Positions 1-24,442 of a stretch of DNA of 64,000 nt are shown here, piece by piece. Source of the DNA: Amphiscolops sp. MND2022 (taxonomy: Eukaryota); assembly GCA_964187785.1 (NCBI GenBank), contig OZ076409.1, positions 72,604,001-72,668,000 on the forward strand. The letters are read 5' to 3'. The position numbers and the translations under genes are program-made. The notes under the pieces are model-generated. The model worked only from the letters and a program-made list of their open reading frames with translations. It searched no databases and was not told the origin of the DNA. Position 1 is the first letter of the stretch, and each line of letters starts with the position of its first letter.

Positions 1-1809
1 AAATTAGCGCCCCCCACCGGGTTCCATACCCCGGAAAATTTTTTTCTGGCCACACGGGCGACCGTTAGGGGGTCATTTTAGGGGTAAAATTCATATTGGG
101 CCACATAACTTTTTTTCTGTTGATTTAAAACTTTGGGACCCTGCTAAAAGTTTCTTGACCGTGTTGCAGGGGCCCCGGAGGTCCAAACCAAATTTTTCTA
201 TCTTGAAGCTATCTCCAAGTACCCCCCCGCTCAAACCGTTATTTTCCCGGAAACGCAGGTTTTTGACCCGGAAGGAGTCGTCTGAGCGCGGGGTCGTTAG
301 GTGATGTATTGGGGACGGCCTTGAGACGAAGTGGGGGACATGTAGTTTGCCAACCTCAATTTACCCCCCGGACGGGAAATGACCGTTATATGAGCGGGAA
401 AAATGCCCCCCTCCACGTTTTACCGCTATTTCCGGTGTGAAGGAGTGGGAGTAGCGCGTCGGGTGCCATATATCAAAAGTAGGTTTAAACAAGGACCTAT
501 CGGAAACATGTGGTTTGGGACCCCCTGGACCAACCCGTAAGCAGGAAATGGGGCTTCCGGCCCGTTTTTTTTACGGTTAAAAACGGAAAATGGGCATTGA
601 GGGGTAAATATCTCGTGAACGCGTGGAGCTACGGTGTCCTTCACTACTACAAGGTTTCATACCCATGATATGGTGCCTTCAGGGGGGCAAACAGATTTCC
701 GCTATCTATCACCGTTACCGACTTGGCCCCCCAGCCTAACCGCTATTTGACCGGAAATGTCAGTTTTTGAGCCCTAAGGGTCGGTCCGAGCGTGGCATCG
801 TTAGGTAACTTATTGTATTACTCAATGAGACTAGTTGGGGGATATAGTTTCAGTCACCCCCCGTTACCCCTTGGGACCGGAAATGACCGTTATGTGGGTA
901 AAATTGCAATTTTTGTACTTTTTGAAGGGCAATTAGGTGCGGAAGGAGTGGTAATAGGTGCTTGGACACTATTTGAGGTAAGGGAGGACGTGAGGCGAGC
1001 ATTCAGAAATAACCGTTATGATGACCCCAAAGTCCCCCTGGTACCGTAAACGACCGGAAATGGTCGAATTTTGTGTCTATTGAGTACAAATGTTTGGTGT
1101 TTTATGAATAAAAGTACCTATTAGGTGTTTCGACGGTTTGCAGTAGTGAACATAGTCATGAAACCTTGTGGGGGGTAACGGTATATAGCACCGGAATTCC
1201 GAACCGTTGGAGACAGGATATGTTTTTTGGTCTTAAAATGTCTTTCGGCGTACTTTTGTCGACTATTATGGACTATTTTTCAAAAATAAAGTTTTTCCAT
1301 ATAGTTTCAGAGACTCCGAAACCTCAAACAACATAACCGTTACCTTATGATAGCCTTTCAAGTTGGCCTGGTGTCAACTTGGAAGGGCTATCCTTCAAAA
1401 ATCGTTAATCAAGTGTGTTTTTGGGTATGTTTTTATCATTTTAGAATCAATTAGAGCTCCAAGAAAAGTTTGCCAACGACAAAAACTATGTCGTGATGAT
1501 TCCGTTATTAGAACGATGGTTAACAAAATGTTGATAAAGTTGATTTTTTACATTTCAAATGTGTCCTAAAAGCCAGAAAACCTCTTTACCAAAAAAATGG
1601 TATTGATTGAATTGTATATAACAGGTAATAAAAGTTCAAATTGATTATTACGTTTCATTATTCAAGCTAAAAATTCATAACATAGTTTAATTAACGTCAA
1701 CGCCACATACTTTACATCAACGCCCACTGTCTGTGGGCATGCCGAGGCATGCCCTTCGACGACGTATACCAAATACATACCCAAACGACGCCCGTACATG
1801 CCGGGCTAG
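1..1809 (+). mobile_element. U0, family A short cassette (5'-truncated by window), putative non-autonomous Helitron-like/rolling-circle element
   Basis: Aligns to 1810-3779 at an offset of ~1970 bp; ends with core (1729-1767), module and CTAG. Confidence 0.6.
1735..1754. promoter_or_regulatory. p53/p63/p73-type response element GGGCATGCCG-AGGCATGCCC (representative; identical at all 26 unit ends, last copy 62526-62545)
   Basis: Two abutting decamers match RRRCWWGYYY at 19 of 20 positions, both with CATG cores and no spacer. It is also a perfect 20-bp inverted repeat apart from the 2 central bases. Confidence 0.6.
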
Positions 1810-3779
1810 GTGCGGGGGGAAACCCCATCCCTTATCTTGGAGGATTCGGGTAGGGTCCTGAATCCGAGTTCAGTGCCGCCAGCTCTCAGTAGAAATCTGG
1901 GAAATTTTTTGCGATCTCGTGATCTAACCATAGGATTTTAAAGTTGGAGCGGCCCCCACCAGATTTTCCAAAGTTATTCGCCCCCCACCGGGTTCCAGCG
2001 TGATTGAAATATTTTGTCGGGGTACACGGGCGACCGTTAGGGGTCATTTTAGGGGTAAAATTTATATCCGGTCGCATAACTTTTTTCCTGTTGGTTTAAA
2101 ACTTTGGGACCCTGCTAAAAGTTTCTTGACCGTGTTGCGGTGGCTCCGGAGGTCCGAACCAAATTTTTCTATCTTGAAGCTATCTCCAAGTACCCCCCCG
2201 CCCAAACCGTTATTTTTCCGGAAACGCCGGTTTTTGACCCGGAAGGAGTCGTCTGAGCGCGGGGTCGTTAGGTGATGTTTTGGGGACGGCCTCGAGACGA
2301 AGCGGGGGATATATAGTTTGCCGACCCCAGTTTACCCCCCGCACGGGAAATGACCGTTATATGAGCGGGAAAAATGCCCCCCTCCACGTTTTACCGCTAT
2401 TTCCGGTGTGAAGGAGTGGGAGTAGCGCGTCGGGTGCCATATATCAAAAGTAGGTTTAGACAAGGATCTATCGGAAACATGTGGTTTGGGACCCCCTGGA
2501 CCAACCCGTTAGCAGGAAATGGGGCTTCCGGCCCGTTTTTTTACGGTTAAAAACGGAAAATGGGCATTGAGGGGTAAATATCTCGTGAACGCGTGGAGCT
2601 ACGGTGTCCTTCACTACTACAAGGTTTCATACCCATGATATGGTGCCTTCAGGGGGGCAAACAGATTTCCGCTATCTATCACCGTTACGGACTTGGCCCC
2701 CCAGCCTAACCGCTAAGTGACCGGAAATGTCACTTTTTGAGCCCAAAGGGTCGGTCCCAGCCAGGGAACGTTAGGTAACTTATTGTAGTACTCATTGAGA
2801 CGAGTTGGGGGACATAGTTTCAGTCACCCCCCGTTACCCCTTGGGACCGGAAATGACCGTTATGTGAGTAAATTTGCCATTTTTGTCCTATTTGAAGGGC
2901 ATTTAGATGCGGAAGGAGTGGTAATAGGTGCTTGGACACTATATGAGGTAAGGGAGGACGTGAGGCGAGCATTCGGACATAACCGTTATGTTGACCCTAA
3001 AGTCCCCCTGGTACCGTAAACGACCGGAAATGGTCAAATTTTGTGGCTATTGGGTACAAATGTTTGGTATTTTGTAAATAAAAGTATCTATTAGGTGTTT
3101 CGACGGTTTGCAGTAGTGAACATAGTCATGAAACCTTGTGGGGGGTAACGGTATATAGCACCGGAATTCCGAACCGTTGGAGACAGGATAGGTTTTTTGG
3201 TTTTAAAATGTCTTTCGGCGTACTTTTGTCGACTATTATGGACTATTTTTAAAAATTAAAGTTTTTCCATATAGTTTCAGAGACTCCGAAACCTCAACCA
3301 ACATAACCGTTACCTTATGATAGCCTTTCAAGTTGGCCTGGTGTCAACTTGGAAGGGCTATCCTTCAAAAATCGTTAATCAAGTGTGTTTTTGGGTATGT
3401 TTTTATCATTTTAGAATCAATTAAAGCTCCAAGAAAAGTTTGCCAACGACAAAAACTATGTCGTGATGATTCCGTTATTAGAATGATGGTTAACAAAATG
3501 TTGATAAAGTTGATTTTTTACATTTCAAATGTGTCCTAAAAGCCAGAAAACCTCTTTACCAAAAAAATGGTATTGATTGAATTGTATATAACAGGTAATA
3601 AAAGTTCAAATTGATTATTACGTTTCATTATTCAAGCTAAAACTTCATAACAAAGTTTAATTAACGTCAACGCCACACACTTTACATCAACGCCCACCGT
3701 CTGTGGGCATGCCGAGGCATGCCCTTCGACGACGTATACCAAATACATACCCAAACGACGCCCGTACATCCCGGGCTAG
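1810..3779 (+). mobile_element. U1, family A short cassette (1970 bp)
   Basis: Head GTGCGGGGGGAAACCCC; GC-richer body; ends with core, ACCAAATACATACCC module and CTAG. Confidence 0.6.
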
Positions 3780-5319
3780 GTGGGCGGGGGTAATTCCCCA
3801 ACAAAAATTACGGCCGGCGGGTTGGGTCCTGCCGGACGTCAAATAGCAAAGAATATCTAGTAGGAAACGGCGACACAGAATCGCGATTTTTAAATCTAAC
3901 CACAATTTTTTGGACTTGGAGTGCATGCGGCCCTGAAATGCCCATACGAATCGAAGTTCCTGCTGACGTTAAGCGATTGAAATAATATATAAAAAGTTAT
4001 GGCCCATTTTTCACTCACATAGAAGGGTAAAATGAGGAAATTTTTAACAAAGTCGCTGATAACTCAAAATGTGTTAATTTTTGGACATTGACTGTGAAAC
4101 AAGCTTGGAACCTTCATTTCGTGGCTGTGGCATTGCACTGAACACAAAAGATGTAAAGTTTTTACATTTTTTGAAAATTCGACATTTCTGAAATTTTTTT
4201 CACTACTATCAGTACCCCATATGTCAAAAACGCTTCAGAAAAAATTTTTTATTTGCTTTAAATTGGAAACCTTGGTATCCATGGTTTCTGTCGGAACCTA
4301 CTCGCAGCCAAACACTCAACAGTTTGCATCCAATGTGAAAATAAAATTTTTTTCGGGGTCATAAGCGTTTCACAAGGATTTCTCAACTTAGTATTATTTT
4401 ACAAAATGGTCATTTTGAACACAATATTTTCATCGAGGCTTGTCGGCTATAGCCTTAATGTTCTAGAACGGTCCCACTGGCAACGTAGGAACCATTTATA
4501 GTAATGGAAAGTAATAAAAAAATATTTTCACCCGGTCTTCAGTCATTTTTCAGTCATTCGGAACTTAACTTAGAAAAATTTCGACCAAAATACCCATTTT
4601 TTGTCAGGTCGAAAATTCAAATTCAGATTTTTAAGCAAAATTATTAACTCTGACGTAACCCATGGGGCCCATAATACTCAAAACAACGATTGACACTGGT
4701 ATCAATGGCTTCAATAACATATGAGTCGCGATAAGACGTTATTTTGAGCATTACGTCTCAATTGAGGTAAAGATCTCGCAAGCCAGTGATCACAGTGAAA
4801 TGTGATTTCATCAAAAATTTACTCTTTTTTGTCAATCATTATGTGCACAGAATGCGTAGGGTGCGTTTCAGCACTATAATGAGGTTTTTCAAGGCATCGA
4901 GTTGCTCAAGGGGTGGTATGAGACATTTTTGTCCCATATACTACTGTATTTTCCAAAATTTTTAGCCCAATATCTGGAAATACAAACTTGACAAAATACT
5001 TTCAACTACTTTATTCAAAGGTTACAATATAGATGAACACTGTGGTTGATCAGAAACTTTCATCTCTTTCGTTTTCGGAAATATTTCCCTTCGCATGTGT
5101 TACATTCATAGCAGAAAAAAAAATCGAAACTGAAAAATACGCTATTTTGCTAATATAGAATCGCAATGATTGTGCCTAAAAACTCTTTAAACACTTCTAA
5201 CGCAACCTTACGCACCCAAAATGATCAATAATGCTATTCACAATGGTGACATGTGCTCTTTCTACGATCCTGGCTGGACAAGGTTTGCATATTTTTCAAG
5301 TACCTGTCAGCTAAATCTT

Positions 5320-5367
5320 GTGATAGCCTTTTCAGTTGGCCTTGTGTCAACTTGGGAAGGCTATCAC
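5320..5367 (+). other. Conserved internal ~45-nt stem-loop of short units (representative; family A copy at 1349-1392)
   Basis: GTGATAGCCTT..AGTTGGC-CTTGT-GTCAACT..AAGGCTATCAC inverted repeat, ~400 bp before CTAG in A and B units. Confidence 0.85.
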
Positions 5368-5725
5368 ATCAAAAAACCATCAACAAAAATAATTTTTGTT
5401 TATTGGATCTTACAGTCGATACTTTTTTTCGTGATTCTATACTACCGTTAGTATATTTCCTCAGGTCACCTTACGATTGCATTCAGTCTTTGATAAAAAC
5501 CTATGAACTCAAAGTCACATTTATATATTTTTTTGCCAAAAAAACATCAAAAATATCCAAAAAATATAAAATAGAGTCTTTAGCATTTTTACGTTTCAAG
5601 TTTCCGCCGTTATTAGGCCAATCAACGTCCTACAGCCACGCTCTCTGTCATACTGTACAACGCCACATAGTGTTGCGACGCTCACGGTCTGTGGGCATGC
5701 CGAGGCATGCCCTTCGACGACGTAT

Positions 5726-5764
5726 GCCGAATACCGCGGGCCTACGCCCGCGCTCCCCGGCTAG
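5726..5764 (+). other. Helitron-like 3' terminus: GC hairpin CGCGGGC-CTAC-GCCCGCG, 8 nt, CTAG (representative of 13 copies)
   Basis: An 18-nt hairpin ending 12 nt before the end of CTAG matches the canonical Helitron hairpin + CTRR geometry. Confidence 0.65.
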
Positions 5765-7757
5765 GTGCGGGGGGGAAACCCCATCCCTTATCTTGGAGGA
5801 TTCGGGTAGGGTCCTGAATCCGAGTTCAGTGCCGCCAGCTCTCAGTAGAAATCTGGGCATTTTTTTGCGATCTCGTGATCTAACCATAGGATTTTAAAGT
5901 TGGAGCGGCCCCCACCAGATTTTCCAAAGTTATTCGCCCCCCACCGGGTTCCAGCGTGATTGAAATATTTTGACGGGGTACACGGGCGACCGTTAGGGGT
6001 CATTTTGGGGGTAAAATTTATATCCGGTCGCATAACTTTTTTCCTGTTGGATTAAAACTTTGGGACCCTGCTAAAAGTTTCTTGACCGTGTTGCGGGGGC
6101 TCCGGAGGTCCAAACCAAATTTTTCTATCTTGAAGCTATCTCCAAGTACCCCCCCGCCCAAACCGTTATTTTTCCGGAAACGCAGGTTTTTGACCCGGAA
6201 GGAGTCGTCTGAGCGCGGGGTCGTTAGGTGATGTATTGGGGACGGCCTTGAGACGAAGCGGGGGATATATAGTTTGCCGACCCCAGTTTACCCCCCGGAC
6301 GGGAAATGACCGTTATATGAGCGGGAAAAATGCCCCCCTCCACGTTTTACCGCTATTTCCGGTGTGAAGGAGTGGGAGTAGCGCTTCGGGTGCCATATAT
6401 CAAAAATAAGTTTAGACAAGGACCTATCGGAAACATGTAGTTTGGGACCCCCTGGACCAACCCGTTAGCGGGAAATGGGGCTTCCGCCTCCTTTTTTTAC
6501 TGCTAAAACCGTAAAATGGGCATTGAGGGGTAAATATCTCGTGAACGCGTGGAGCAATCGTGTCCATCACTACTACAAGGTTTCATACCCATGATATGGT
6601 GCCTTCAGGGGGGCAAACAGATTTCCGCTATCTATCACCGTTACCGACTTGGCCCCCCAGCCTAACCGCTATGTGACCGGAAATGTCACTTTTTGAGCCC
6701 AAAGGGTCGGTCCCAGCCGGGGAACGTTAGGTAACTTATTGTAGTACTCAATGAGACGAGTTGGGGGATATAGTTTCAGTCAACCCCCGTTACCCCTTGG
6801 GACCGGAAATGACCGTTATGTGGGTAAATTTGCAATTTTTATACTCTTTGAAGTGTATTTAGGTGCGGAAGGAGTGGTAATAGGTGCTTGGACACTATAT
6901 GATGTAATGGAGGTCGTGAGGAGAGCATTCGGAAATAACCGTTATGTTGACCCCAAAGTCCCCCTGGTACCGTTAACGACCGGAAATGGCCAAATTTTGT
7001 GTCTATTGGGTACAAATGTTTGGTATTTTATGGATAAAAGTACCTGGAAGGTGTTTTAAAGGCCTCCAGAAGTGAACATAGTCATGAAACCTTGTGGGGG
7101 GTAACGGTATATAGCATCGGAAGTCCAAACCGTTGGTCACAGAATAGGTTTTTTGGTTTCAATATGTCTTTAGGCATAGTTTTGTGGGTTGAATCGTCAT
7201 AATATCAACTAATACGGACTTTTTTCGGAAATAAAATTTTTTCACATTAGTTTCAGGGACCTCCAATGCTTCAGTCAAAATAACCGTTACATTTTGATAG
7301 CCTTTCAAGTTGACCTGGTGTCAACTTGGAAGGGCTATCCTTCTAAAATCGTTAATCAACAGTGTTTTTGGGTAGGTATATGTTGCATTAGTACCAATTA
7401 GAGCTTCATCAACAGTTTGCCAACGGCAAAAACGATGTCGTGATAATTCCGTTATAAAAATATTAGTTAACAAATTGTTTTCAAAGTTGATTTTTTCCAT
7501 TAAAAATGTGTCCTAATGCCACCAAATTGAATAAAATAATAAATGGTATTGACTAAAACTAAATAACAATGAAAAAGAAGATCAACATTTTTATTAGGTC
7601 TCATTATGGAAGCAGAAACCTCACGTTTTAACTTAATTAACGTCAACGCCACATACTTTACATCAACGCCCACCGTCTGTGGGCATGCCGAGGCATGCCC
7701 TTCGACGACGTATACCAAACAACCTCCATATCTACACCCACCCGCGGTAGCAGCTAG
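5765..7757 (+). mobile_element. U3, family A short cassette with divergent 3' part (1993 bp)
   Basis: Near-identical to U1 until ~7045, then more diverged; different terminal module. Confidence 0.6.
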
Positions 7758-9741
7758 GTGGGCGGGGGTAATTCCCCAACAAAAATTACGGCCGGCGGGT
7801 TGGGTCCTGCCGGACGTCAAATAGCAAAGAATATCTAGTAGGAAACGGCGACACAGAATCGCGATTTTTAAATCTAACCACAATTTTTTGGACTTGGAGT
7901 GCATGCGGTCCTGAAATGCCCATACGAATCGAAGTTCCTGCTGACGTTAAGCGATTGAAATAATATATAAAAAGTTATGGCCCATTTTTCACTCACATAG
8001 AAGGGTAAAATGAGGAAATTTTTAACAAAGTCGTTGATAACTCAAAATGTGTTAATTTTTGGACATTGACTGTGAAACAAGCTTGGAACCTTCATTTCGT
8101 GGCTGTGGCATTGCACTGAACACAAAACATGTAAAGTTTTTACATTTTTGAAAATTCGACATTTTTGAAATTTTTTTCACTACTATCAGTACCCTATATG
8201 TCAAAAACGCCTCAGAAAATAATTTTTATTTGCTTTAAATTGGAAACCTTGGTATCCATGGTTTCTGTCGGAACCTACTCGCAGCCAAACACCCAACAGT
8301 TTGCATCCAATGTGAAATAAAAAATTTTTTCGAGGTCATAAGCGTTTCACAAGGATTTCTCAACTTAGTTTCAATTTACAAATTGGTCATATTGAACACA
8401 ATATTTTCATCGAAGCTTGTCAGATACCGCCCTAATGCTCACTAATGGGCCTACTCGCAACGTTGGAACCGTTTATAGTAATAGAAAGTTTAAAAAAAAT
8501 ATTTTCACCCGGTCTTCAGTCATTTTTCAGTCATTCGGAACTTTACTTAGAAAAATTTCGACCAAAATACCCATTTTTTGTCAGGTCGAAAAATCAAATT
8601 CACATTTTTAAGCAAAATTATTAACTCTGACGTAACCCATGGGGCCCATAATACTCAAAACAACGATTGACACTGGTATCAATGGCTCCAATAACATATG
8701 AGTCGCGATAAGACGTTATTTTGAGCAATACGTCTCAATTGAGGTAAAGATCTCGCAATCCAGCGATCACTGTGAAATGTGATTTCATCAAAAATTTACT
8801 CATTTTTGTCAATCACTATGTGCAGAGAATGCGTAGGGTGCGTTTCAGCACTATAATGAGGTTTTTGAAGGCATCGAGTTGCTCAAGGGGTGGTATGAGA
8901 CATTTTTGTCCCATATACTACTGTATTTTCCAAATTTTTTAGCCCAATATCTGGAAATACAAATTTGACAAAATACTTTCAACTACTTTATTCAGAGGTT
9001 ACAATATAGATGAACACTGTGGTTGATCAGAAACTTTCATCTCTTTCGTTTTCCGAAATAATTTCCTTCATATGTGTTACATTTGTAGCAGAAAAAAAAA
9101 TCGATACTGAAAAATACGCTATTTTGCTAATATAGAATCGCAATGATTGTGCCTAAAAACTCTTTAAACACTTCTAACGCAACCTTACGCACCCAAAATG
9201 ATCGAAAATGCTATTCACAATGGTGACATGTGCTCTTTCAACGATCCTGACTGAACAATTTTCGCAAATTATTCAAGTACCTGTTAACTGAATCTCGTGA
9301 TAGCCTTTTAAGTTGGCCTTGTGTCAACTTGGGAAGGCTATCACATCAAAAAATTTGCAACAAAAATACATTTTGTTTATTGGAAATGACAGTCGATGTA
9401 TAATTTTGTGATTCTATACTACCGTTAGTACCTTCCATTAAGTCACCTGACGATTGCATTCAGTCTTTGATAAATACCAATGAACTCGAAGTCATATTTA
9501 TAAATTTTGTGCTAAAAATAAACATAAAAATTATCCAAATTATTTAAAATTGAGTCTTTACCGTTTTTGTTTTTCTTTTTCTACTGTTATTAGGCCCATC
9601 AACTTCCTACAGCCACGCTCTCTGTCATACCGTACAACGCCACATAGTGTTGCGACGTGCACAGTCTGTGGGCATGCCGAGGCATGCCCTTCGACGACGT
9701 ATGCCGAATACCGCGGGCCTACGCCCGCGCTCCCCGGCTAG
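7758..9741 (+). mobile_element. U4, family B short cassette (1984 bp, head B1)
   Basis: Bounded by CTAG|GTG junctions; homologous to U2. Confidence 0.6.
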
Positions 9742-11725
9742 GTGGGCGGGGGTAATTCCCCAACAAAAATTACGGCCGGCGGGTTGGGTCCTGCCGGACG
9801 TCAAATAGCAAAGAATATCTAGTAGGAAACGGCGACACAGAATCGCGATTTTTAAATCTAACCACAATTTTTTGGACTTGGAGTGCATGCGGCCCTGAAA
9901 TGTCCATACGAATCGAAGTTCCTGCTGACGTTAAGCGATTGAAATAATATATAAAAAGTTATGGCCCATTTTTCACTCACATAGAAGGGTAAAATGAGGA
10001 AATTTTTAACAAAGTCGCTGATAACTCAAAATGTGTTAATTTTTGGACATTGACTGTGAAACAAGCTTGGAACCTTCATTTCGTGGCGGTGGCATTGCAC
10101 TAAACACAAAAGATGTAAAGTTTTTACATTTTTTGAAAATTCGACTTTTTTGAAATTTTTTTCACTACTATCAGTACCCCATATGTCAAAAACGCCTCAG
10201 AAAAAAATTTTTATTTGCTTTAAATTGGAAACCTTGGTATTCATGGTTTCTGTCGGAACCTACTCGCAGCCAAACACCCAACAGTTTGCATCCAAAGTGA
10301 AAATAAAATTTTTTTCGGGGTCATAAGCGTTTCACAAGGATTTCTCAACTTAGTATTAATTTACAAAATGGTCATTTTGAACACAATATTTTCATCGAGG
10401 CATGTCGGCTATAGTCCTATTGCTCACGAACGGTCCTACTGGCAACGTAATAACCATTTATAGAAATGTAAAGTTATAAAAAAAATTTTTCACCCGGTCT
10501 TCAGTCATTTTTCAGTCATTCGGAACTTAACTTAGAAAAATTTCGACCAAAATATCCATTTTTTGTCAGGTCGAAAAATCAAATTCAGATTTTTAAGCAA
10601 AATTATTAACTCTGACGTAACCCATGGGGCCCATGATACTCAAAACAACGATTGACACTGGTATCAATGGCTCCAATAACATATGAGTCGCGATAAGACG
10701 TTATTTTGAGCATTACGTCTCAATTGAGGTAAAGATCTCGCAAGCCAGCGATCACTGTGAAATGTGATTTCATCAAAAATTTACTCTTTTTTGTCAATCA
10801 CTATGTGCACAGAATGCGTAGGGTGCGTTTCAGCACTATAATGAGGTTTTTGAAGGCATCGAGTTGCTCAAGGGGTGGTATGAGACATATTTGTCCCATA
10901 TACTACTGTATTTTCCAAAATTTTTAACCCAATATCTGGAAATACCAACTTGACAAAATACTTTCAACTACTTTATTCAAAGGTTACAATATGGATGAAC
11001 ACTGTGGTTGATCAGAAACTTTCATCTCTTTCGTTTTCCGAAATATTTCCTTTCGCATGTGTTACATTCGTAGCAGAAAAAAAAATCGAAACTGAAAAAT
11101 ACGCAATTTTGCTAATATAGAATCGCAATGATTGTGCCTAAAAACTCTTTAAACACTTCTAACGCAACCTTACGCACCCAAAATGATCGAAAATGCTATT
11201 CACAATGGTGACATGTGCTCTTTCTACGATCCTGGCTGGACAAGGTTTGCATATTTTTCAAGTACCTGTCAGCTAAATCTTGTGATAGCCTTTTCAGTTG
11301 GCCTTGTGTCAACTTGGGAAGGCTATCACATCAAAAAACCATCAACGAAAATAATTTTTGTCTATTGGATCTTACAGTCGATACTTTTTTTCGTGATTTT
11401 ATACTACCGTTAGTATATTTCATCAGGTCACCTTACGATTGCATTCAGTCTTTGATAAAAACCTATGAACTCAAAGTCACATTTATATATTTTTTTGCCA
11501 AAAAAAACATCCAAAATATCTAAAATATATAAAATAGAATCATTAACATTTTTACAGTTCAAGTTTCTGCCGTTATTAGGCCAATCAACGTCCTAGAGCC
11601 ACATCCTGTCATACTGTACAACGCCACAAAGTGTTGCGACGTGCACAGTCTGTGGGCATGCCGAGGCATGCCCTTCGACGACGTATGCCGAATACCGCGG
11701 GCCTACGCCCGCGCTCCCCGGCTAG
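9742..11725 (+). mobile_element. U5, family B short cassette (1984 bp, head B1)
   Basis: Bounded by CTAG|GTG junctions; homologous to U2. Confidence 0.6.
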
Positions 11726-13708
11726 GTGGGCGGGGGTAATTCCCCAACAAAAATTACGGCCGGCGGGTTGGGTCCTGCCGGACGTCAAATAGCAAAGAAT
11801 ATCTAGTAGGAAACGGCGACACAGAATCGCGATTTTTAAATCTAACCACAATTTTTTGGACTTGGAGTGCATGCGGCCCTGAAATGCCCATACGAATCGA
11901 AGTTCCTGCTGACGTTAAGCGATTGAAATAATATATAAAAAGTTATGGCCCATTTTTGGGTCACCGAGAAGGGCAAAATGAGGAAAATTTTAACTAAGTC
12001 GCTGATAACTCAAAATGTGTTAATTTTTGGACATTGACTGTGAAACAAGCTTGGAACCTTCATTTCGTGGCTGTGGCATTGGACTGAACACAAAAGATGT
12101 AAAGTTTTTACATTTTTTGAAAATTCGACATTTTTGATTTTTTTTTCACTAGTATCAGCACCCCATATGTCAAAAACGCCTCAGAAAAAAATTTTTATTT
12201 GCTTTAAATTGGAAACCTTGGTATCCATGGTTTCTGTCGGAACCTACTCGCAGCCAAACACCCAACAGTTTGCATCCAATGTGAAAATAAAAATTTTTTC
12301 TGGGTCATAAGCGTTTCACAAGGATTTCTCAACTTAGTATTAATTTACAAAATGGTCATTTTGAACACAATATTTTCATCGAGGCTTGTCGGCTATAGCC
12401 TTAATGTTCTAGAACGGTCCCACTGGCAACGTAGGAACCATTTATAGTAATGGAAAGTAATAAAAAAATATTTTCACCCGGTCTTCAGTCATTTTTCAGA
12501 CATTCGGAACTTATCTTAGAAAAATTTCGTCTCAAACACCCATTTTTTGACAGGTCGAAAAATCAAATTAGGATTTTTAAGCACAATTATTAACTCTGAC
12601 GTAACCCTTGGGGCCCATGATACTCAAAACAACGATTGACACTGTTATCAATGGCTCCAATAACATATGAGTCGCGATAAGACGTTATTTTGAGCAATAC
12701 GTCTCAATTGAGGTAAACATCTCGCAAGCCTGGGATCACAGTGGAATGTAAATTCATCAAAAGTTTACTCATTTTTGTCAATCACTATGTGCACAGAGTG
12801 CGTAGGGTGAGTTCCAGCACTATAATGAGGTTTTTGAAGGCATCGGGTTGCTCAAGGGGTGGTATGAGACATTTTTTTTCTATATACTACTGTATTTTCC
12901 AAAATGTTTAGCCCATTATCTGGAAAAACTAACTTGACAAAATACTTTCAATGATTTTATTCAAAGGCTACAATGTAGATGAACCCAGTGGTTGATCAGA
13001 AACTTTCATCTCTTTCGTTTTCCGAAATATTTCCCTTCGCATGTGTTACATTTGTAGCAGAAAAAAAATCGAAACTGAAAAATACGATATTTTGCTAATA
13101 TAGAATCGCAATGATTGTGTCTAAAAACTCTTTAAACACTTCTAACGCGACCTTACGCACCCAAAATGATCAAAAATGCTATTCACAATGGTGACATGTG
13201 CTCTTTCAACGATCCTGACTGAACAATTTTCGCAAATTATTCAAGTACCTGTTAACTGAATCTCGTGATAGCCTTTTAAGTTGGCCTTGTGTCAACTTGG
13301 GAAGGCTATCACATCAAAAAATTTTCAACAAAAATACTTTTTGTTTATTGGAAATGACAGTCGATATATAATTTCGTGATTCTATACTACCGTTAGTACC
13401 TTCCATTAAGTCACCTGACGATTGCTTTCAGTCTTTGATAAATACCTATGAACTCGAAGTCTTATTTATAAATTTTGTGCTAAAAATAAACATCAAAACT
13501 ATCCAAATTATTTAAAATTGAGTCTTTACCGTTTTTGTTTTTCTTTTTCTACTGTTATTAGGCTCATCAACTTCCCACAGCCACGCTCTCTGTCATTAGT
13601 ACAACGCCACATAGTGTTGCGACGTGCACGGTCTGTGGGCATGCCGAGGCATGCCCTTCGACGACGTATGCCGAATGCACTGCGGCGACGCCCGCAGTCC
13701 AAGGCTAG
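11726..13708 (+). mobile_element. U6, family B short cassette (1983 bp) with a unique terminal module
   Basis: Body nearly identical to U8; ends ACTGCGG-CGACGC-CCGCAGT-CCAAGG-CTAG. Confidence 0.6.
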
Positions 13709-14520
13709 GTGGGGGGGATATATCTCCACTTTTTTTGCGACCGCGGGTAGGGTCCTGTCGGGAGCTTCTATTTACCAAGCTTACGGCGCTATATACTAGA
13801 GAAAATTTTTCCGGCACCGAACTTTTTTTTGAACCATAGGATTTGTACCATTTTTTGCATGCGGCCCTAATTTGGGCATACAAGACGAAGTTCCTGCTGA
13901 CGTTAAGCGATGGTTTCATTGTGTAACGAGATATAGCCACTTTTTGGTGCGAATTTTGAGGTATTTTTGAGAAAAATTTTACAAACAGCTCGAATGCAAA
14001 AAATTGAAAAACTTGTGACAATCGACCTATCACTGGTTTAAACCTTCGATTCTTTGCCCTAGCAATGCACTAGACCCAAAAGATCTAAAACTTTTACATT
14101 TTCCAAAAATTTGACCAAATTGACTCGGGTTTCACTACTATATGTAACCAATGTGACAAAAACACCTCAGAAAAAAATTTTTATTTGCTTAAATTTAGAA
14201 ACCTTGGTATCCATGGTTTCTGTCGGAACCTACTCGCAGCCAAACACTCAACAGTTTGCATCCAATGTGAATTTAAATTTTTTTTCGAGGTCATAGGTGT
14301 TTCACAAGGATTTCACAACTTAGTTTCATATTACAAATTGGTCATTTTCAACATCATATTTCCATCGAGGCATGTCGGATAGAGTGTTATTGCTTACGAA
14401 CGGTCCTACTGGCAACGTGTTAACCATTTATAGAAATACAAAGTTATAAAAAAATTTTTTCACCCGTTCTTCCATCATTTTTCAGACATTCGGAACTTAT
14501 CTTAGAAAAATTTCGTCTCA

Positions 14521-15700
14521 AAAACCCATTTTTTGTCAGGTCGAAAACTCAAATTCAGCTTTTTAAGCACAATTATTAACTCTGACGTAACCAGTGGGGC
14601 CCATGATACTCAAAACAACGATTGGGGTTGGTACCATTGGCTCAAATAACATATGAGTCGCGATAAGACGTTATTTTTAGCCATACGTCTCAATTGAGGT
14701 AAACATCTCGCAAGCCAGGGATCTCTGTGAAATGTGATTTCATCAAAAAGTTACCCATTTTCGCCAATTACTATGTGCACAGAGTGCGTAGGGTGAGTTT
14801 CAGCACTATAATGAGGTTTTTGAAGGATTCGGGTTGCTCAAAGGGTGGTATGAGACATTTTTTTCCCATATACTACTGTATTTTCCAAAAATTTTAGCCC
14901 ATTATCTGGAAAAACTAACTTGACAAAATACTTTCAGTTACTCTATTCGAAGCTTAGAATATAGATGAACACTGTGGTTGATCAGAAACTATTAACTATT
15001 TTGTTTTTAGAAAAAAACTGCCTTGCATGTGTTACATTAGTGGCAGGAAAAATACCAGTAGCTCCAAAAATCAAAAATTTGGACGGACAGACTTCCAATG
15101 ATGCAAAACAAAAACGTTTCAACAACTTCTGACGCCACTTTTTTTACCCAAGAGGTTCGAAAACACCATTAACAATGCTGACATTCGCAATAAATAAGAT
15201 CGAGGTCTATTTACTAACACTTAGGTTTTAAATTTTTTTCTCGGAAACCCATTATTGTCAGGTCGCAAATTCAAATTTGGTTTTGGAAGCAATACTTTTC
15301 ACTCTGAAGCAAACCGTTGGGCCCAAAATACTCAACAACAACAAAAAGACTATCACCATATGCTCTAATAACATATGAGATGCGACTGTATGTTTTTAAC
15401 ACAATAACTCTCATTCTGAAGTAAACATGTTGAAAGCCTTGAATCACAGTGAGAAGTGATTTCATCAAAAACTATTTCTTTTTCGTCAATCACTAAATAC
15501 ACAGAACCCGTTGTGTTAGTTTCAGTAGTGAAATGAGGTTCTACCGTAATATCGGTTGCTCAAGGTGTTGTATAAGGCAAAAACTTCCTCTTTTCTACTA
15601 ACTTCTTCAAATATTTCAACCCTTTGTCACACGAAGTTAATATTCAAAATCTCTTTGAATTGTTTCTTAAGGTTGTGGTGAATTGTTAGAACAATTACTA
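14521..15700 (+). repeat. Old ~722-bp-period direct duplication inside long cassette U7 (also present in U11, U12 and U19)
   Basis: CCCATTTTTTGTCAGGTCG (~14525) recurs as CCCATTATTGTCAGGTCG (~15248); GTGATTTCATCAAAAA at ~14734 and ~15456; GGTTGCTCAA at ~14832 and ~15554. Confidence 0.85.
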
Positions 15701-15946
15701 TGATCGAAGAATGCTAGTATTGGTGTTTGGACCATGTCCGGATGAACAAATCGCAAAATCAAGAAAAAATTGTTTCCTTTTTTGGTTATTTTGGCAGTAC
15801 TAAAAATGTTAGCTGATAAATAATTTTTTCGAAGGCACCATTGGATTCCGCTCAAAAAGTTGATTATAAGACATGTGTAATAACCCCGTATCTTTTCAAT
15901 TTAAATAAATTTAAAAAGCAAACTTTTTGACGAAAATCCTAAAAAT

Positions 15947-17284
15947 CATACCATTTCCTAAAAAATTTCAAATGCACTCCATTTGACGTATAAGAATAGC
16001 ACAGAAAACTATCATATACCGATCAACTTTACTCCCATTGTAGACTATTAGAATTTTGTTTTGATTGAATTTTGAAGAATATTAAAAAATTTTGAACCCT
16101 CCAAAAATGGACCAAAATTACACGAAAAAATTGACCTTAAAATTTTAAAATGTCAAAAAATCATCAAAACCACAACTTCTTGGGGTTCTATCAACTCCAC
16201 GTGGTCCACAGAGTACGCTAAAACAGGTTTTACCCGTTTTTGAGCAATATGTGAAAAAGCCGACATTTTTGGGAAAGAAAAACATACCATTTCCTAAAAA
16301 ATTTCAAATGCACGCCATTTGCCGTATGAGAATAGCACAGAAAACTATCACATACCGATCAACTCTACTTTCATTGTAGATGATTAGAAGTTAGTTTAAA
16401 TGAAAATTAGACGGATAATAAAAAAATATAAATCCTCCAAAAGTGGGCAAAAATTACACGAAAAAATTGTCCTTAAAATATTAAAATGTCCAAAAATCAT
16501 CAAAACCACAGCTTCTTGGGGTTCTATCAACTCCACATGGTCCACAGAGTACGCTAAAACAGGTTTTACACGTTTTTGAGCAATATGTGGAAAAGCCGAC
16601 ATTTTTGGGAAAGAAAAACATAACATTTCCTAAAAAAATTCACATGCACGCCATTTGGCGTATAAGAATAGCACAGAAAACTATCATATACCGATCAACT
16701 CTACTCCTATTGTAGATTATTAGAACTTTGTTTTGAATGAATTTTGAAGGATAATAAAAAATTTTGAACCCTCCGAAAATGGGCTAAAATTACACGAAAA
16801 AAGTGACCTTAAAATTTTAAAATGTCTAAAAATCATCAAAACCACAGCTTCTTGAGGTTCTATCAACTCCACATGGCCCACAGAGTATGCCAAACCAGGT
16901 TTTGCGCGTTTTTGAGCAAAATTTAGGAAAGCCGATTTTTTTGAGGAAGAAAAACATATCATTTCCTAAAAAACTTCAAATGCACGCCATTTGGCGTATA
17001 ACAATAGCACAGAAAACTATCACATACCAATCAACTCTACTCTTTTTGTAGATTACCAGAAGTTTGCTTAGAATAACTTTTGATGAATATTTATAAATTT
17101 TAAACCCTCCTAATATGGGCCAAAATCACACGGAAAAATTGACCCTAAGTATTAAAATGTCAGATATTCATCAAAACCCCAGCTTCTTGGGGTTCTATCA
17201 TTTCCATATGACTTTCAGTGTATACCAAACAAGTTATTAACATTGGGCGATAATTAAAAAGACCAATTTTATTCTGAAGAAAAC
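15947..17284 (+). repeat. Internal tandem repeat, 4 x 336 bp (U7)
   Basis: CATACCATTTCCTAAAAA-type starts at 15947, 16283, 16619 and 16955; the last copy is degenerate. Confidence 0.95.
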
Positions 17285-17501
17285 CATAATATGTTCAATA
17301 TAAGAAGTGAATCATTCCACATATATACCCTGTCTAATATTCTAAATTAGCAAAAAAATATATACTTGATGTTTTTTGAATGTGAGCTTCATAAAAGGTT
17401 GAGATGTGATAATACGTAAATGGAATCCAAGTTTCATCGAAAAGTCAATGGAATACGTCCAATCAACTTCAATCTTAACAATTCGATAACAAAAAACACT
17501 T

Positions 17502-17543
17502 AAGTACATTCCATCTCCCTATCGGGGAGATGAGAATGTACTT
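17502..17543 (+). other. Internal ~40-nt stem-loop of long units (also 28239-28279, 32996-33038, 49698-49738)
   Basis: AAGTACATTC-CATCTCCC..GGGAGATG-A-GAATGTACTT inverted repeat. Confidence 0.85.
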
Positions 17544-18476
17544 TTCTAAAACTAAAAACTTAGATCTTTCTATCTTTTGTAACACTTACTGTAACAGCTG
17601 AAATGATGAAAGGATAATTATTCTTCTAATAACTTCAAGATTTTTTGCTTCACCTTTTATTTCTGCAGAACAAAACCATAAGACATACATATTTTTCGCA
17701 GTTAAGTTCGACTGTATTACCCAGTGAACAAAGGTATGACAGGAAGAATACAAGTTGTCTCAAAACTTTCCCGCCTTCCAAAATCATGAAACGTCTACAC
17801 AACCAAGATAGTAAAGGAATGAATGTGGAATGCATCATTTTAGTTAAAATAAATAACGTGTAGAACTTACCTTTATCTGAAGATGATGTTGATTTATGAT
17901 CTTTAGAGGATAGTTCAATTTTTGACCATAATAGTGCGAAACTAATTATTATATGAATAATGGCGTGGAAAGCGTTCAGAAATTGCAGTATTTTCGATTC
18001 GAGCATGTATGCGTGGGTTCCTTTGGTGGCAGTAGCTTAGTGTACATGATGGAAGTTTTCGATCTATTATGATAAAATTTACTCACAAGTCTTTGTTTTT
18101 CCTATTTTTTTATGCCATTAAGTACATTCATTCTATCCCCTTCTCTGGGAATGTACGTTTGCCAAATGACTGTCATCCAAATTTTGCATTCGCGAAGAGT
18201 TTAAATACATAAACACGTCTTTAGCGTTTCCAAATCACAACCGATTAACATTTTTAAAAATTTTTTTTATGAAAATTGATAATTTGTTTTGATTTTGGTA
18301 TCTTCTACTTTTATCATCCATCATAACAAGCACGTTACCATGTCTCTCGCTTGTCTTCATTTTACAACGACACATAGCGTTCCGACTCCCACCGTCTGTG
18401 GGCATGCCGAGGCATGCCCTTCGACGACGTATGCCAACTACTTTTTATATCTACACCCGATTGCGGTAGCGGCTAG

Positions 18477-20457
18477 GTGGGCGGGGGTAATTCCCCTTCA
18501 AAAAATTCGGCCGGCGGGTTGGGTCCTGCCGGACGTCAAATAGCAGAAAATACCTATTAGGAAACGGCGACACAAAACGGCGATTTTTAAATCTAACCAC
18601 AATTTTTTGGACTTGGAGTGCATGCGGCCCTGAAATGCCCATACGAATCGAAGTTCCTGCTGACGTTAAGCGATTGAAATAATATATAAAAAGTTATGGC
18701 CCATTTTTGGGTCACCGAGAAGGGCAAAATGAGGAAAATTTTAACTAAGTCGCTGATAACTCAAAATGTGTTAATTTTTGGACATTGACTGTGAAACAAG
18801 CTTGGAACCTTCATTTCGTGGCTGTGGCATTGCACTGAACACAAAAGATGTAAAGTTTTCACATTTTTTGAAAATTCGACATTTTTGAATTTTTTTTCAC
18901 TAGTATCAGCACCCCATATGTCAAAAACGCCTCAGAAAAAAATTTTTATCTGCTTTAAATTGGAAACCTTGGTATCCATGGTTTCTGTCGGAACCTACTC
19001 GCAGCCAAACACCCAACAGTTTGCATCCAATGTGAAAATAAAAATTTTTTCTGGGTCATAAGCGTTTCACAAGGATTTCTCAACTTAGTATTAATTTACA
19101 AAATGGTCATTTTGAACACAAAATTTTCATCGAGGCTTGTCGGCTATAGGCTTAATGTTCTAGAACGGTCCCACTGGCAACGTAGGAACCATTTATAGTA
19201 ATTGAAAGTTATAAAAAAATTTTTCACCCGTTCTTCAGTCATTTTTCAGACATTCGGAACTTATCTTAGAAAAATTTCGTCTCAAACACCCATTTTTTGA
19301 CAGGTCGAAAAATCAAATTAGGATTTTTAAGCAAAATTATTAACTCTGACGTAACCCATGGGGCCCATGATACTCAAAACAACGATTGACACTGGTATCA
19401 ATGGCTCCAATAACATATGAGTCGCGATAAGACGTTATTTTGAGCAATACGTCTCAATTGAGGTAAACATCTCGCAAGCCTGGGATCACAGTGAAATGTA
19501 AATTCATCAAAAATTTACTCATTTTTGTCAATCACTATGTGCACAGAGTGCGTAGGGTGAGTTCCAGCACTATAATGAGGTTTTTGAAGGCATCGGGTTG
19601 CTCTAGGGGTGGTATGAGACATTTTTTTCTATATACTACTGTATTTTCCAAAACTTTTAGCCCATTATCTGGAAAAACTAACTTGACAAAATACTTTCAA
19701 TGATTTTATTCAAAGGCTACAATGTAGATGAACCCAGTGGTTGATCAGAAACTTTCATCTCTTTCGTTTTCCGAAATATTTCCCTTCGCATGTGTTACAT
19801 TTGTAGCAGAAAAAAAATCGAAACTGAAAAATACGCTATTTTGCTAATATAGAATCGCAATGATTGTGCCTAAAAACTCTTTAAACACTTCTAACGCGAC
19901 CTTACGCACCCAAAATGATCAAAAATGCTATTCACAATGGTGACATGTGCTCTTTCAACGATCCTGACTGAACAATTTTCGCAAATTATTCAAGTACCTG
20001 TTAACTGAATCTCGTGATAGCCTTTTAAGTTGGCCTTGTGTCAACTTGGGAAGGCTATCACATCAAAAAATTTTCAACAAAAATACTTTTTGTTTATTGG
20101 AAATGACAGTCGATATATAATTTCGTGATTCTATACTACCGTTAGTACCTTCCATTAAGTTACCTGATGATTGCTTTCAGTCTTTGATAAATACCTATGA
20201 ACTCGAAGTCTTATTTATAAATTTTGTGCTAAAAATAACCATCAAAACTATCCAAATTATTTAAAATTGAGTCTTTACCGTTTTTGTTTTTCTTTTTCTA
20301 CTGTTATTAGGCTCATCAACTTCCTACAGCCACGCTCTCTGTCATTAGTACAACGCCACATAGTGTTGCGACGTGCACAGTCTGTGGGCATGCCGAGGCA
20401 TGCCCTTCGACGACGTATGCCGAATACCGCGGGCCTACGCCCGCGCTCCCCGGCTAG
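18477..20457 (+). mobile_element. U8, family B short cassette (1981 bp)
   Basis: Bounded by CTAG|GTG junctions; body matches U6. Confidence 0.6.
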
Positions 20458-22446
20458 GTGGGCGGGGGTAATTCCCCAACAAAAATTACGGCCGGCGGGT
20501 TGGGTCCTGCCGGACGTTCAAATAGCGCGAAGCATCTAGTAGAAAACAAGGAGTCCTGAAACAGCGATTTTAAAATTGAACCGTTAGAATTTGGTTTTAG
20601 ATTGCATGCGGCCCTAAAATCCCCATACGAATGGAAGTTCCTGCTGGCGTTAAGCGATTGAAATAATATATAAAAAGTTATGGCCCATTTTTGGGTCACC
20701 GAGAAGGTCAAAATGAAGAAAATTTTAACTAAATTGCTGATAACTCAAAATGTGTTAATTTTTGGACTTTGACTGTGAAACAAGCTTGGAACCTTCATTT
20801 CGTGTCTGTGGCATTGCACTGAACACAAAAGATGTAAAGTTTTCACATTTTTTGAAAATTCGACATTTTTGAATTTTTTTTCACTACTATCAGTACACTA
20901 TATGTCAAAAACACCTCTGAAAATTTTTTTTTATTGCTTAAATTTAGCAACCTCGGTATCCATGGTTTCCGTCAGTACCTACTCGCTGCCAAACACTCAA
21001 CAGTTTGCATCCAATGTGAAAATAAAATTATTTTCGAGGTCTTAGGTGTTTCACAAGGATTTCTCAACTTAGTATCAATTTACAAATTGGTCATTTTGAA
21101 CACATTATTTTCATCGAAGCGTGTCATATACCGCCCTAATGCTCACGAACGGGCCTACTGGCAACGTTGGAACCATTTATAGTAATAAAAAGTTTTAAAA
21201 AAATTTTTTCACCCCGTCTTCAGTCATTTTACACACTTTCGGAACTTAACTTAGAAAAATTTCAACCAAAAACCCATTTTTTGTCAAGTCGAAAATTCAA
21301 CTTCAGCTTTTTAAGCAAAATAAATAAATCTGACATAACCAGTGGGGCCCATGAAACTCAAAACCACGATTGAGACTGGTATCAATGGCTCCAATAACAT
21401 ATGAGTCGCGATAAGACGCTATTTTGAGCAAAACATCTCAATTGAGGTAAAGATCTCGCAAGCCAGCGATCACTGTGAAATGTGATTTCATCAAAAATTT
21501 ACTCTTTTTTGTCAATCACTATGTGCACAGAATGCGTAGGGTGCGTTTCAGCACTATAATGAGGTTTTTGAAGGCATCGAGTTGCTCAAGGGGTGGTATG
21601 AGACATTTTTGTCCCATATACTACTGTAGTTTCCAAAAATTTTACCCCAATATCTGGAAATACAAACTTGACAAAATACTTTCAATTACTTTATTCAAAG
21701 GTTACAATATAGATGAACACTGTGGTTGATAAGAAACTTTCATCTCTTTCGTTTTCGGAAATATTTCCGTTCGCATGTGTTACATTCATAGCAGAAAAAA
21801 AAATCGAAACTGAAAAATATGCTATTTTGCTGATATAGAATCGCAATGATTGTGCCTAAAAACTCTTTAAACACTTCTAACGCAACCTTACGCACCCAAA
21901 ATGATCGAAAATGCTATTCACAATGGTGACATGTGCTCTTTCTACGATCCTGGCTGGACAAGGTTTGCATATTTTTCAAGTACCTGTCAGCTAAATCTTG
22001 TGATAGCCTTTTCAGTTGGCCTTGTGTCAACTTGGGAAGGCTATCACATCAAAAAACCATCAACAAAAATAATTTTTGTTTATTGGATCTTACAGTCGAT
22101 ACTTTTTTTCGTGATTCTATACTACCGTTAGTATATTTCATCAGGTCACCTTACGATTGCATTCAGTCTTTGATAAAAACCTATGAACTCAAAGTCACAT
22201 TTATATAGTTTTTTGCCAGAAAATAACATCAAAAATATCTAAAATATATAAAATAGAGTCTTTAACATTTTTACGTTTCAAGTTTTTGCCGTTATTAGAC
22301 CAATCAACGTCCTAGAGCCACATCCTGCCACATACTGTACAACGCCACATAGTGTTGCGACGTGCACAGTCTGTGGGCATGCCGAGGCATGCCCTTCGAC
22401 GACGTATGCCGAATACCGCGGGCCTACGCCCGCGCTCCCCGGCTAG
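20458..22446 (+). mobile_element. U9, family B short cassette, subtype B2 (1989 bp)
   Basis: Head ...GGACGTTCAAATAGCGCGAAGC; near-identical to U16, U20 and U25. Confidence 0.6.
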
Positions 22447-24442
22447 GTGCGCGGGGTTATTCCCCCCGTTTGTCCCCGGCCGGCGGGTAGGGTCCTGACG
22501 GCCGTCCTTAATCATGAAGCTTGCTGTTTAGCGCAAAAAGCCCACAAAAACGCCGATTTTAAAAACTAACCATTAGAATTTGTTCGTAGATTGCATGCGG
22601 CCCTAAAATTTGCATACGAATGGAAGTTCCTGCTGACGTTAAGCGATAGAAACATTATAAAAAAAGTTATGGCCAATTTTTGGTCCCCATTAGATGTAAA
22701 AATGATGAAATTTTTCATAAAAGGGCAAATATCTCAAAATGCAATAATTTTTGGACATTGACTGTGAAACAAGCTTGGAACCTTCATTTCGTGGCTGTGG
22801 CATTGCACTGAACACAAAAGATGTAAAGTTTTTACATTTTTTGAAAATTTGACATTTTTGAATTTTTTTTCACTACTATCAGTACCATATATGTCAAAAA
22901 CACCTCAGAAAAAAATTTTTATTTGCTTTAACTTGGAAACCTTGGTATCCATGGTTTCTGTCGGAACCTACTCGGAGCCAAACACTCAACAGTTTCCATC
23001 CAATGTGAAAATAAATTTTTTTTCGAGGTTATAGGTGTATCACAAGGATTTCACAACTTAGTATTAATTTACAAAATGGTCATTTTCAACATCATATTTT
23101 CATCGAGGCATGTCGGATATAGTCCTAATGCTCACGACCGGTCCTACTGGCAACGTATTACCCATTTATAGAAATATAAAGTTTTAAAAAAATATTTTCA
23201 CCCGATCTTCAGTCATTTTTCAGTCATTCGGAACTTAACTTAGAAAAATTTCGACCAAAAAACCCATTTTTGTCAGGTCGAAAATTCAAATTCAGCTTTT
23301 TAAGCAAAATTATTAAATCTGACGTAACCAGTGGGGCCAATGAAACTCAAAACCGCAATAGACACTGGTATCAATGGCTCCAATAACTTATGAGTCGCGA
23401 TAAGACGTTATTTTGAGCAATACGTCTCAATTGAGGTAAACATCTCGCAAGCCAGGGATCACTGTGAAAAGTGATTTCATCAAAAATTTACTCATTTTCG
23501 TCAATCACCATGTGCACAGAATGCGTAGGGTGCGTTTCAGCACTATAATGAGGTTTTTGAAGGCGTCGGGTTGTTCAAGGGGTGGTATGAGACAATTTTT
23601 TCCCATATACTACTGTATTTTCCAAAACTTTTTGCCATTTATCTGGAAAAACTAATTTGACAAAATACTTTCAATTACTTTATTCGAAGGTTACAGTATA
23701 GATGAACCCTGTGGTTGATCAGAAACTTTCATCTCTTTTGTTTTCCGAAATAATTCCCTTCGAATGTGTTACTTTTGTAGCCGGGTAAATAACCGAAACT
23801 GAAAAATACGCAATTTTGCTGAGATAGAATCCTAATGGTTGCACCCAAAATCTCTTTAAATATTTCTAACGCGACCTTACGGACCTAAAATGATTGAAAA
23901 TGTCATTCACAATGCTGACATGTGCTCTTTCTACGATCCTGGCTGGACAAGTGTCGCATATTTTTCAAGTACCTGTTAACTGAATTTTGTGATAGCCTTT
24001 CAAGTTGGCCTTGTGTCAACTTGGGAAGGCTGTCACATCAAAAAACTATCAACAAAATTACGTTTCGTTAATGTAAGAATGCTGTCAATGATTAATTTAG
24101 TGATTCTATCCTACCGTTGGTACCTTCCATCAGATCAGATAACGATTGCATTCAGTCTTTGATAAAAACCTATGAACTCGAATACATTTTTCTGTTTTTT
24201 TTTCTAACAGAAAAGTAAAAAATAATAAATTTTTTATTAATAACACCTTTCAGTACTATTACTTTCACACACAATCGTTACCGTGATCAGCCACACCCAC
24301 CCCGTGCGGCCTCGCCCTGTTAGTAGTGCAACGCCACATATAAACATCAACGCCCACAGTCTGTGGGCATGCCGAGGCATGCCCTTCGACGACGTATGGC
24401 AAATTTAGCGTTGCCCGCACTCTGGAGTGCGGTAGCAGCTAG
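22447..24442 (+). mobile_element. U10, divergent family B short cassette (1996 bp)
   Basis: Unique head GTGCGCGGGGTTATTCCCC and unique tail; same core and CTAG. Confidence 0.6.

Follow-up and report, generated by a model that had tools for sequence, protein, structure and literature searches.

A 64-kb mixed array of single whole units in random order, with 3′ terminal modules inherited with their own bodies

Background

Helitrons are defined, in the sections of the literature cited here, by a 5′-TC, a 3′-CTRR and a hairpin located 10–12 nt from the 3′ end (PMC5148889). In Helraiser, a palindrome 11 nt upstream of CTAG acts as the terminator, and a foreign stem leaves about 90 % of the activity (PMC4778049); the circles formed by this element carry precise end-to-end (head-to-tail) junctions (PMC4778049, PMC5876387). 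De novo 3′ ends have arisen in 39 of 395 bat Helitron copies, some of them via insertion abutting another Helitron, and insertions are described in which the 5′ end abuts the 3′ end of another copy (PMC4778049). In Paramecium, Helitrons insert site-specifically and have alternative 3′ ends that show compensatory changes (PMC13085455). According to the HELIANO report, left ends are usually more variable (PMC11417382). The telomeric Helitrons of D. biarmipes are degraded and randomly oriented (PMC6581046), and IS91 inserts beside a tetranucleotide (PMC10288648).

Here we analyse a window of 64,000 nucleotides from Amphiscolops sp. MND2022, by which we mean the whole stretch of DNA under study. 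A preliminary description had divided it into units and proposed that the short module at the end of each unit is exchanged independently of the unit body, in the manner of a swappable terminator or identity tag held between two invariant anchors. The coordinates and sequences on which this proposal was built could all be verified, as could the module lengths of 35 to 41. We show that the module is the 3′ terminal hairpin of its unit, inherited with that unit's own body, and that single whole units make up the array in a random order, the breakpoints lying at GCTAG|GTG. Variable and occasionally exchanged 3′ hairpins are already known from the Helraiser, bat and Paramecium precedents. The flagged swap is ordinary in that 3′-end exchange is known in Helitrons, and the array of shuffled whole units matters more than the module swap.

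Results

The window is a single array of three unit types

The entire window (1..64000, plus strand, 37 % GC) is one tandem array whose units follow each other head-to-tail on one strand. A 39-bp core occurs in 26 copies across it, on the plus strand only, and a unit was defined as the segment cut after the first CTAG past the core; the resulting series, U0 to U26, agrees with the earlier numbering. Nineteen units are of B type (1981–1998 bp), three of A type (U1, U3 and the partial U0) and four are long (4763–4768 bp). They are arranged in random order and the final unit of the window is partial. Homology between the bodies of A and B units is limited to an internal hairpin of 59 bp and a stretch of about 79 bp that surrounds the core, and long units share with B units the terminal region as well as the initial 1.5 kb. 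Each long unit contains about four internal 336-bp repeats (15942-17200, 26674-28023, 31438-32704 and 48133-49482). A second copy of B positions 815-1189, 70 % diverged, is present in the long units as well.

Over their full length, unit bodies are patchworks of sister units. The non-coding B-type unit U6 (11726..13708, plus strand, 1983 bp) is such a mosaic, and it is followed by the long unit U7 (13709..18476, plus strand, 4768 bp), composed of a B-like first 1.5 kb, 336-bp repeats, an unrelated 3′ part and the shared terminal region. A long internal hairpin (13265..13312 in U6, plus strand), located about 430–450 bp before CTAG, is present in all 22 scored short units of types A and B and missing from the four long units. 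Pfam returned no match for 59 ORFs of at least 65 aa taken from six units, and these ORFs carry no transposase or recombinase trace by that search.

Pieces of the family, mostly 80–99 % alike, are also contained at low depths in three sequencing runs with other organism codes. The core runs into a U11-type module in one X3 contig, and a U12-type tail is found in one X2 contig, both at low depth; thus neither the U11-type module nor the U12-type tail is private to this array.

The core (13631..13669 in U6, plus strand, 39 bp) is identical in 25 of 26 units, with one substitution in U20, and its pattern had no match in viral, metagenome or prokaryotic genome contigs; this absence, together with non-coding bodies rich in AT, would suit a eukaryotic host. 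It contains the palindrome GGGCATGCC-GA-GGCATGCCC. At 13637-13656 all 26 cores agree at 19 of 20 positions with what we take to be the consensus of a p53-type double half-site, a candidate match of a kind that palindromes attain more easily. Upstream lies the pre-core motif region (13601..13630, plus strand), CAACGCCACA ... CRACGYSCAC, which takes family-specific forms. The CpG immediately 5′ of the core is variable, and the pattern of its changes is compatible with deamination. The 5′ edge of the core (13621-13640) reads CCAC-N-GTCT-GTGG, most clearly in A and long units, and resembles the junction CCAC-TGCTAG-GTGG of the two metagenome contigs L001 and L002 described below. We also considered core and module as a peptide closed by the TAG stop and rejected this reading: the frame is kept by the 35-, 41- and 38-nt module classes and lost in the 40-nt modules, and the invariance of the core at every position opposes it as well.

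The module is inherited with its own body

Twelve module sequences occur overall, all mutually related, and the common one, found for example in U8 (20419-20453, followed by CTAG at 20454), is carried by 13 of the 26 units. The exchanges reported earlier are real. U6 and U8 have near-identical bodies (98.3–98.8 % over 300–1700 bp before the core; about 98 % overall) and different modules, that of U6 (13670..13704, plus strand) being a 73 % homologue of the common module. The tails of U18 and U24 are 97.4 % identical over their last 300 bp, and their modules only 52 %. The U18 module (45857..45897, plus strand) is indeed a hybrid: its first 17 nt form a U10-type 5′ part (88 %) and its last 24 nt are 100 % identical to the hairpin of U14/U22, which points to recombination inside the module. 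Related modules also sit on unrelated bodies, as in U3 (7714-7753) and U7 (18433-18472), which are 71 % identical, and in U21 and U11 (93 %). In U21 a B body is joined to a pre-core of the long type (95 % to U12), and the pre-core of U10 is closest to the A type (75 %); the exchanges in both units start upstream of the pre-core motif region.

Independence from the body, the wider part of the claim, did not hold. Units were classed by the 150 bp that precede the core (tail), by the module and by the first 110 bp after CTAG (head), and linkage was assessed with 20000 permutations. Pairs with the same tail share the module class in 51 of 64 cases against 16.0 expected (p=5e-5). The two commonest tail classes comprise 15 units, 13 of them with the common module and 2 with another one, and each repeated rare module stays with one tail (U0/U1, U11/U19, U14/U22). 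The Mantel correlation between neighbouring 40-bp windows is 0.75–0.84; it dips to 0.61 across the core, compared with 0.75–0.77 upstream, and falls to −0.06 across CTAG.

The core had been suggested as a second crossover or template-switch point. A copying (painting) model, run with three parameter sets on the 19 B units, A and long units being left out, finds no excess of switches there: the core has 2.5–2.7 switches versus 3.0 per 39 body columns, and 53–57 % of body windows reach or exceed the core count. This model misses the event in U6, whose module is without a donor in the window; with that event counted too, the core remains under the 95th percentile of about 6. Nor does the module behave as a slot between two invariant anchors. 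Exchanges begin upstream of the core in U10 and U21 and within the module in U18, and thus no fixed second anchor exists. Because about 80 bp in the core region are nearly the sole homology among A, B and long units, end swaps between families must go through it.

The module of U6 is a real but isolated 3′-end exchange, and module swaps in the window are real, rare and ordinary. Tight linkage of module and body, with rare ordinary tracts as exceptions, holds within this window; on the scale of the genome, it is what the preliminary description itself had named as the outcome that would speak against its proposal.

A hairpin shortly before the end of CTAG

The modules of 22 of the 26 units contain a perfect 7-bp stem that stops 10 or 12 nt short of the CTAG end. 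Five stem sequences occupy this position (CGCGGGC, ACTGCGG, CCGCACT, CCGCCGT and CCGCGGT), and none of the 56 other CTAGs in the window has the same hairpin geometry. In U6 the hairpin (13679..13698, plus strand) reads ACTGCGG-CGACGC-CCGCAGT, with a stem of 7 bp ending 10 nt before the CTAG end, and is a putative rolling-circle terminator. Units U0 and U1, with a 5-bp stem, and U3 and U7, with none, lack the 7-bp hairpin. Judged from the sequence, the spacing between hairpin and CTAG is the geometry of a Helitron 3′ terminator. A Helitron end on the minus strand was rejected, such a hairpin being found at none of the 26 junctions.

Of the two roles proposed for the module, that of a terminator thus survives as a Helitron-like 3′ hairpin (22/26), and that of an identity tag does not, 13 of 26 modules being the same. 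A CRISPR-like repeat-spacer array, which has unique spacers of foreign origin, is rejected on the same identity of 13 of 26 modules and on the mutual relatedness of the 12 module sequences. Swaps may be tolerated because the shape and position of the hairpin matter more than its sequence. Two details of the fold can be added. In alignment, the common hairpin's 3′ arm falls on the 5′ arm of the hairpin in longer modules, as if the terminator had moved by about 11 nt, and many modules also fold a lower stem that extends to the C of CTAG.

Units are exchanged freely at the junction

The junction GCTAGGTG (13704..13711, plus strand) marks the unit boundary and is invariant in 26 of 26 cases, with no further occurrence in the window. 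At every one of the 26 junctions CTAG is followed by GTG, and left of CTAG just one base, a G, is invariant. The window shows neither an edge of the array nor a solo copy or an empty site. Unrelated A and B units join here with only 8–9 nt in common. Across this boundary there is no linkage between the module and the head that follows (the class is shared in 10 of 81 pairs versus 12.0 expected, p=0.77), and the 26 junctions hold 20 module-head combinations. The head and tail of one and the same unit, 2 kb apart, are linked (19 of 42 versus 8.8 expected, p=0.003). The independence once ascribed to the module therefore applies only downstream, at CTAG, and the true point of free exchange is the GCTAGGTG junction.

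Close sisters tell the same for whole units. They account for 9 of 300 pairs of complete units; all nine are followed by different head classes, and one of the nine differs in module. Similarity is 0.127 between the neighbours of sisters and 0.130 between adjacent units, versus a background of 0.152. U11 (24443..29205, plus strand) is 99.96 % identical to U19 (45902-50664) over 4763 bp, and their neighbours differ: identity stops 14 nt to the left and 28 nt to the right of the unit. It extends over 5 + 20 nt (left + right) for U14/U22 and 7 + 3 nt for U9/U20, and the widest flank identity among the eight examined pairs is 78 nt on the left, where the common module precedes both units, and on the right 151 nt, in U1/U3. 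Linkage survives an identity of 39 bp and is lost across one of 8–25 bp, which would disfavour both plain homologous exchange and assembly misjoins. The exact cut within GCTAGGTG cannot be placed from the array alone.

Unit similarity is raised at lag 8 (p=0.012 uncorrected, one of 12 lags), perhaps as a trace left by block duplication. The sister pairs U11/U19 and U14/U22 are each 8 units apart, and the units in between differ. The sequence GCTAGGTG includes TAGGT, as in TTAGG, which we take to be the insect telomere repeat; no doubled TTAGG occurs in the window.

The head and its distant relatives

The head of the next unit (13709..13770, plus strand) comprises the GTG start, a short hairpin and a stem-loop around the conserved CGGGTHGGGTCCTG, and is a putative initiation end. 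All 26 heads are full length from the same base. When 8 of the 10 head types of the window were taken together with L001 and L002, 80.9 % of cells in the CGGGTHGGGTCCTG stem-loop were paired versus 67.2 % in shuffles and 5 of 11 pairs had changed on both sides, under a control that is lenient since the structure was derived from the same sequences. Reading the head as an SL RNA was rejected, the Sm-like tract being missing from four head types.

The junction-plus-head pattern matched two metagenome contigs, L001 (55-110) and L002 (551-609), for a rough chance estimate of 1–2, and had no match in viral contigs or in genome contigs. The two matches have further features in common: CCACT before the junction, GCG inside, similar spacing and, flanking CTAG, the short inverted repeat CCAC-6 nt-GTGG. 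Each contig carries a long hairpin elsewhere, which in L002 is a perfect 17-bp hairpin at 242-280, and L002, which has no long ORFs, is a closed monomer of 1399 bp. We provisionally take L001 and L002 to be distant relatives of the array units. Neither has the core or, by eye, a terminal hairpin, which weakens the Helitron label. The terminal hairpin may be specific to the lineage of the array, and core and module together may be a lineage-specific 3′ extension. A 14-mer derived from the two contigs had 95 viral sites, none of the 95 with the head motif downstream, which indicates chance. Rfam gave two weak matches on L001/L002. Three segments of L001 (950-1020, 1176-1239 and 1395-1460) look tRNA-like by eye, and one of them scores weakly as a tRNA (E=0.28).

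Discussion

We propose, with about an even chance of being right, that the array is made of non-autonomous, ORF-less rolling-circle elements (HUH, Helitron-like) of 2.0 and 4.8 kb, whose monomers would insert at their own junction. Each element would span the interval from GTG... to ...hairpin-CTAG. A transposase supplied in trans would nick at CTAG|G and peel off one unit; this process would stop at the hairpin-CTAG and the monomer circle would close. Integration of this circle at a junction-like target would rebuild the junction on both sides and so produce a mixed head-to-tail array. The swaps in U6 and U18 would be ordinary recombination or conversion within the homologous last 80–100 bp, at the background mosaic rate.

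The invariant 8-bp junction and the monomer-wise random order could also be the work of a site-specific recombinase of the tyrosine or serine type, which would excise circles of single units and reinsert them at the regenerated 8-bp GCTAGGTG, the module being a folded part of an accessory site. Crypton- and integron-like circle elements have conserved inverted arms around a 6–8-bp overlap, and both the closed L002 monomer and the inverted repeat CCAC-6 nt-GTGG at CTAG in L001/L002 would suit such an enzyme. However, a conserved left arm is absent in the window, where one invariant base precedes CTAG, the strand-specific hairpin at Helitron distance (22/26) would be superfluous, and Pfam on 59 ORFs from six units revealed no trace of the enzyme; we consider a recombinase unlikely. 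An RNA route is a poor prospect too. Transcribed units with processed ends, copied by a site-specific reverse transcriptase at the junction in the manner of telomeric retroelements, or a small-RNA gene in the core region, would explain mixed families placed head-to-tail on one strand and covarying hairpins at both ends. Arrays of site-specific non-LTR retroelements show 5′ truncations and tails of poly(A) or repeats, whereas here all 26 heads are full length and no poly(A) or simple-repeat tail is seen. Rfam on 1-25000 gives no family (one weak match, E=1.4), and there is no tRNA gene. A scan for bacterial promoters and terminators stayed at chance level.

Patchwork bodies over the full length, the weak lag-8 signal and the absence of an enzyme match would fit an ordinary long-monomer satellite that descends from dead elements and is shaped by homologous recombination and conversion only, or an order created by mis-assembly. 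Both homology and k-mer misjoining predict the opposite of linkage that is kept across 39-bp identity and lost across 8–25 bp; the array also shows no similarity between adjacent units and no co-duplicated dimer, and core and hairpins are constrained, so that this explanation appears rather improbable. The cassette or identity tag of the preliminary description, swapped between fixed anchors with the core as a programmed switch point, draws on the two clear swaps (U6 and U18), on related modules that sit on unrelated bodies, on the Mantel dip to 0.61 at the core and on the resemblance of the core's 5′ edge in A and long units to the L001/L002 junction. Strong linkage to the body, a switch density of 2.5–2.7 in the core versus 3.0 in the body, breakpoints that also lie 5′ of the core and within the module, 13 of 26 identical modules and the recurrence of the same tail-type and module sequences in other sequencing runs all count against it. 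Within the window this model is largely refuted, and we hold it to be very improbable.

If monomers of several families do insert singly, each at a junction of its own kind, long mixed arrays can form without unequal crossing-over or rolling-circle concatemers. Such insertion would also point to a eukaryotic transposase of the HUH class whose target is sequence-specific and whose ends are non-canonical, and tools that rely on the TC/CTRR and A|T rules would miss it. More tentatively, and with some doubt, we can imagine an undescribed, widespread eukaryotic HUH group with GTG...CTAG ends and its own junction as target, in which unrelated body families would co-build a shuffled one-strand array, possibly telomere- or centromere-like. 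The invariant p53-type site could tie mobilisation to DNA damage, and L001 and L002 would be distant members.

Comparison with known systems

The target of IS91 mimics its own end. Orientation-specific insertion by a short target is a trait that the array units appear to have in common with IS91/ISCR and Replitrons (PMC10288648). A hairpin at the right end and short direct repeats at the termini characterise Replitrons, which are reported from algae, plants and protists and have other terminal motifs than the array units (PMC10288648). In the array, the 8-bp junction could represent such a direct repeat. Replitrons have a Y1 Rep transposase, and no Rep was found among the 59 ORFs searched with Pfam. 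Mixed self-targeted arrays are not described for IS91/ISCR or Replitrons in the cited part of that report (PMC10288648). The telomeric retrotransposons of Drosophila likewise form mixed head-to-tail arrays on one strand (PMC6581046), but the array units have no ORF, poly(A) or 5′ truncation. GTG...CTAG units in self-targeted mixed arrays do not appear in the excerpts used here of PMC11417382, PMC12001565, PMC13404089, PMC12051294 and PMC6581046. No paper was found with the motif strings; supplements and Repbase, outside the scope of that search, may contain matching termini.

HLE2/Helentron elements have an asymmetric terminal inverted repeat of 11–18 nt and a hairpin at both ends. In the array units hairpins occur at both ends and, by eye, A and long tails hold a 7–8-nt inverse match to the head; T|T insertion and T-rich ends are not seen at the array junctions. 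Compared with HLE1, the 3′ CTRR is present as CTAG at 26 of 26 boundaries, and the hairpin lies at the HLE1 position in 22 of 26 units and at none of the 56 other CTAGs. The 5′ TC start is absent, GTG taking its place at 26 of 26 junctions, and so is the A|T target, all array junctions being CTAG|G. By these sequence features the array units would work in a Helitron-like manner at their 3′ end but lack two defining characters of HLE1, and we do not file them there.

Non-autonomous canonical Helitrons (HLE1; Helibat and Helraiser) have several structural features in common with the array units: CTAG with a GC-rich hairpin 10–12 nt upstream, an exchangeable stem sequence, 3′ ends that are swapped or formed de novo, head-to-tail junctions, a length of about 2 kb, internal tandem repeats and no terminal inverted repeats seen. 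Unlike these, the array units start with GTG rather than TC, join at CTAG|G rather than A|T and have a structured, conserved 5′ end; the left end is thus the conserved one, in contrast to the Helitron pattern given in the cited part of the HELIANO report. Unlike Helitron concatemers, the array mixes families in random order and has no adjacent identical copies. The telomere-inserting Helitrons of Paramecium, as far as the cited excerpt describes them, differ in their CCAA end and their flanks of telomeric repeats, whereas array units abut directly (PMC13085455). Like the array units, they have non-canonical termini and several 3′ ends with compensatory stems on one body, and they combine absolute orientation bias and site-specific insertion with many ORF-less copies (PMC13085455).
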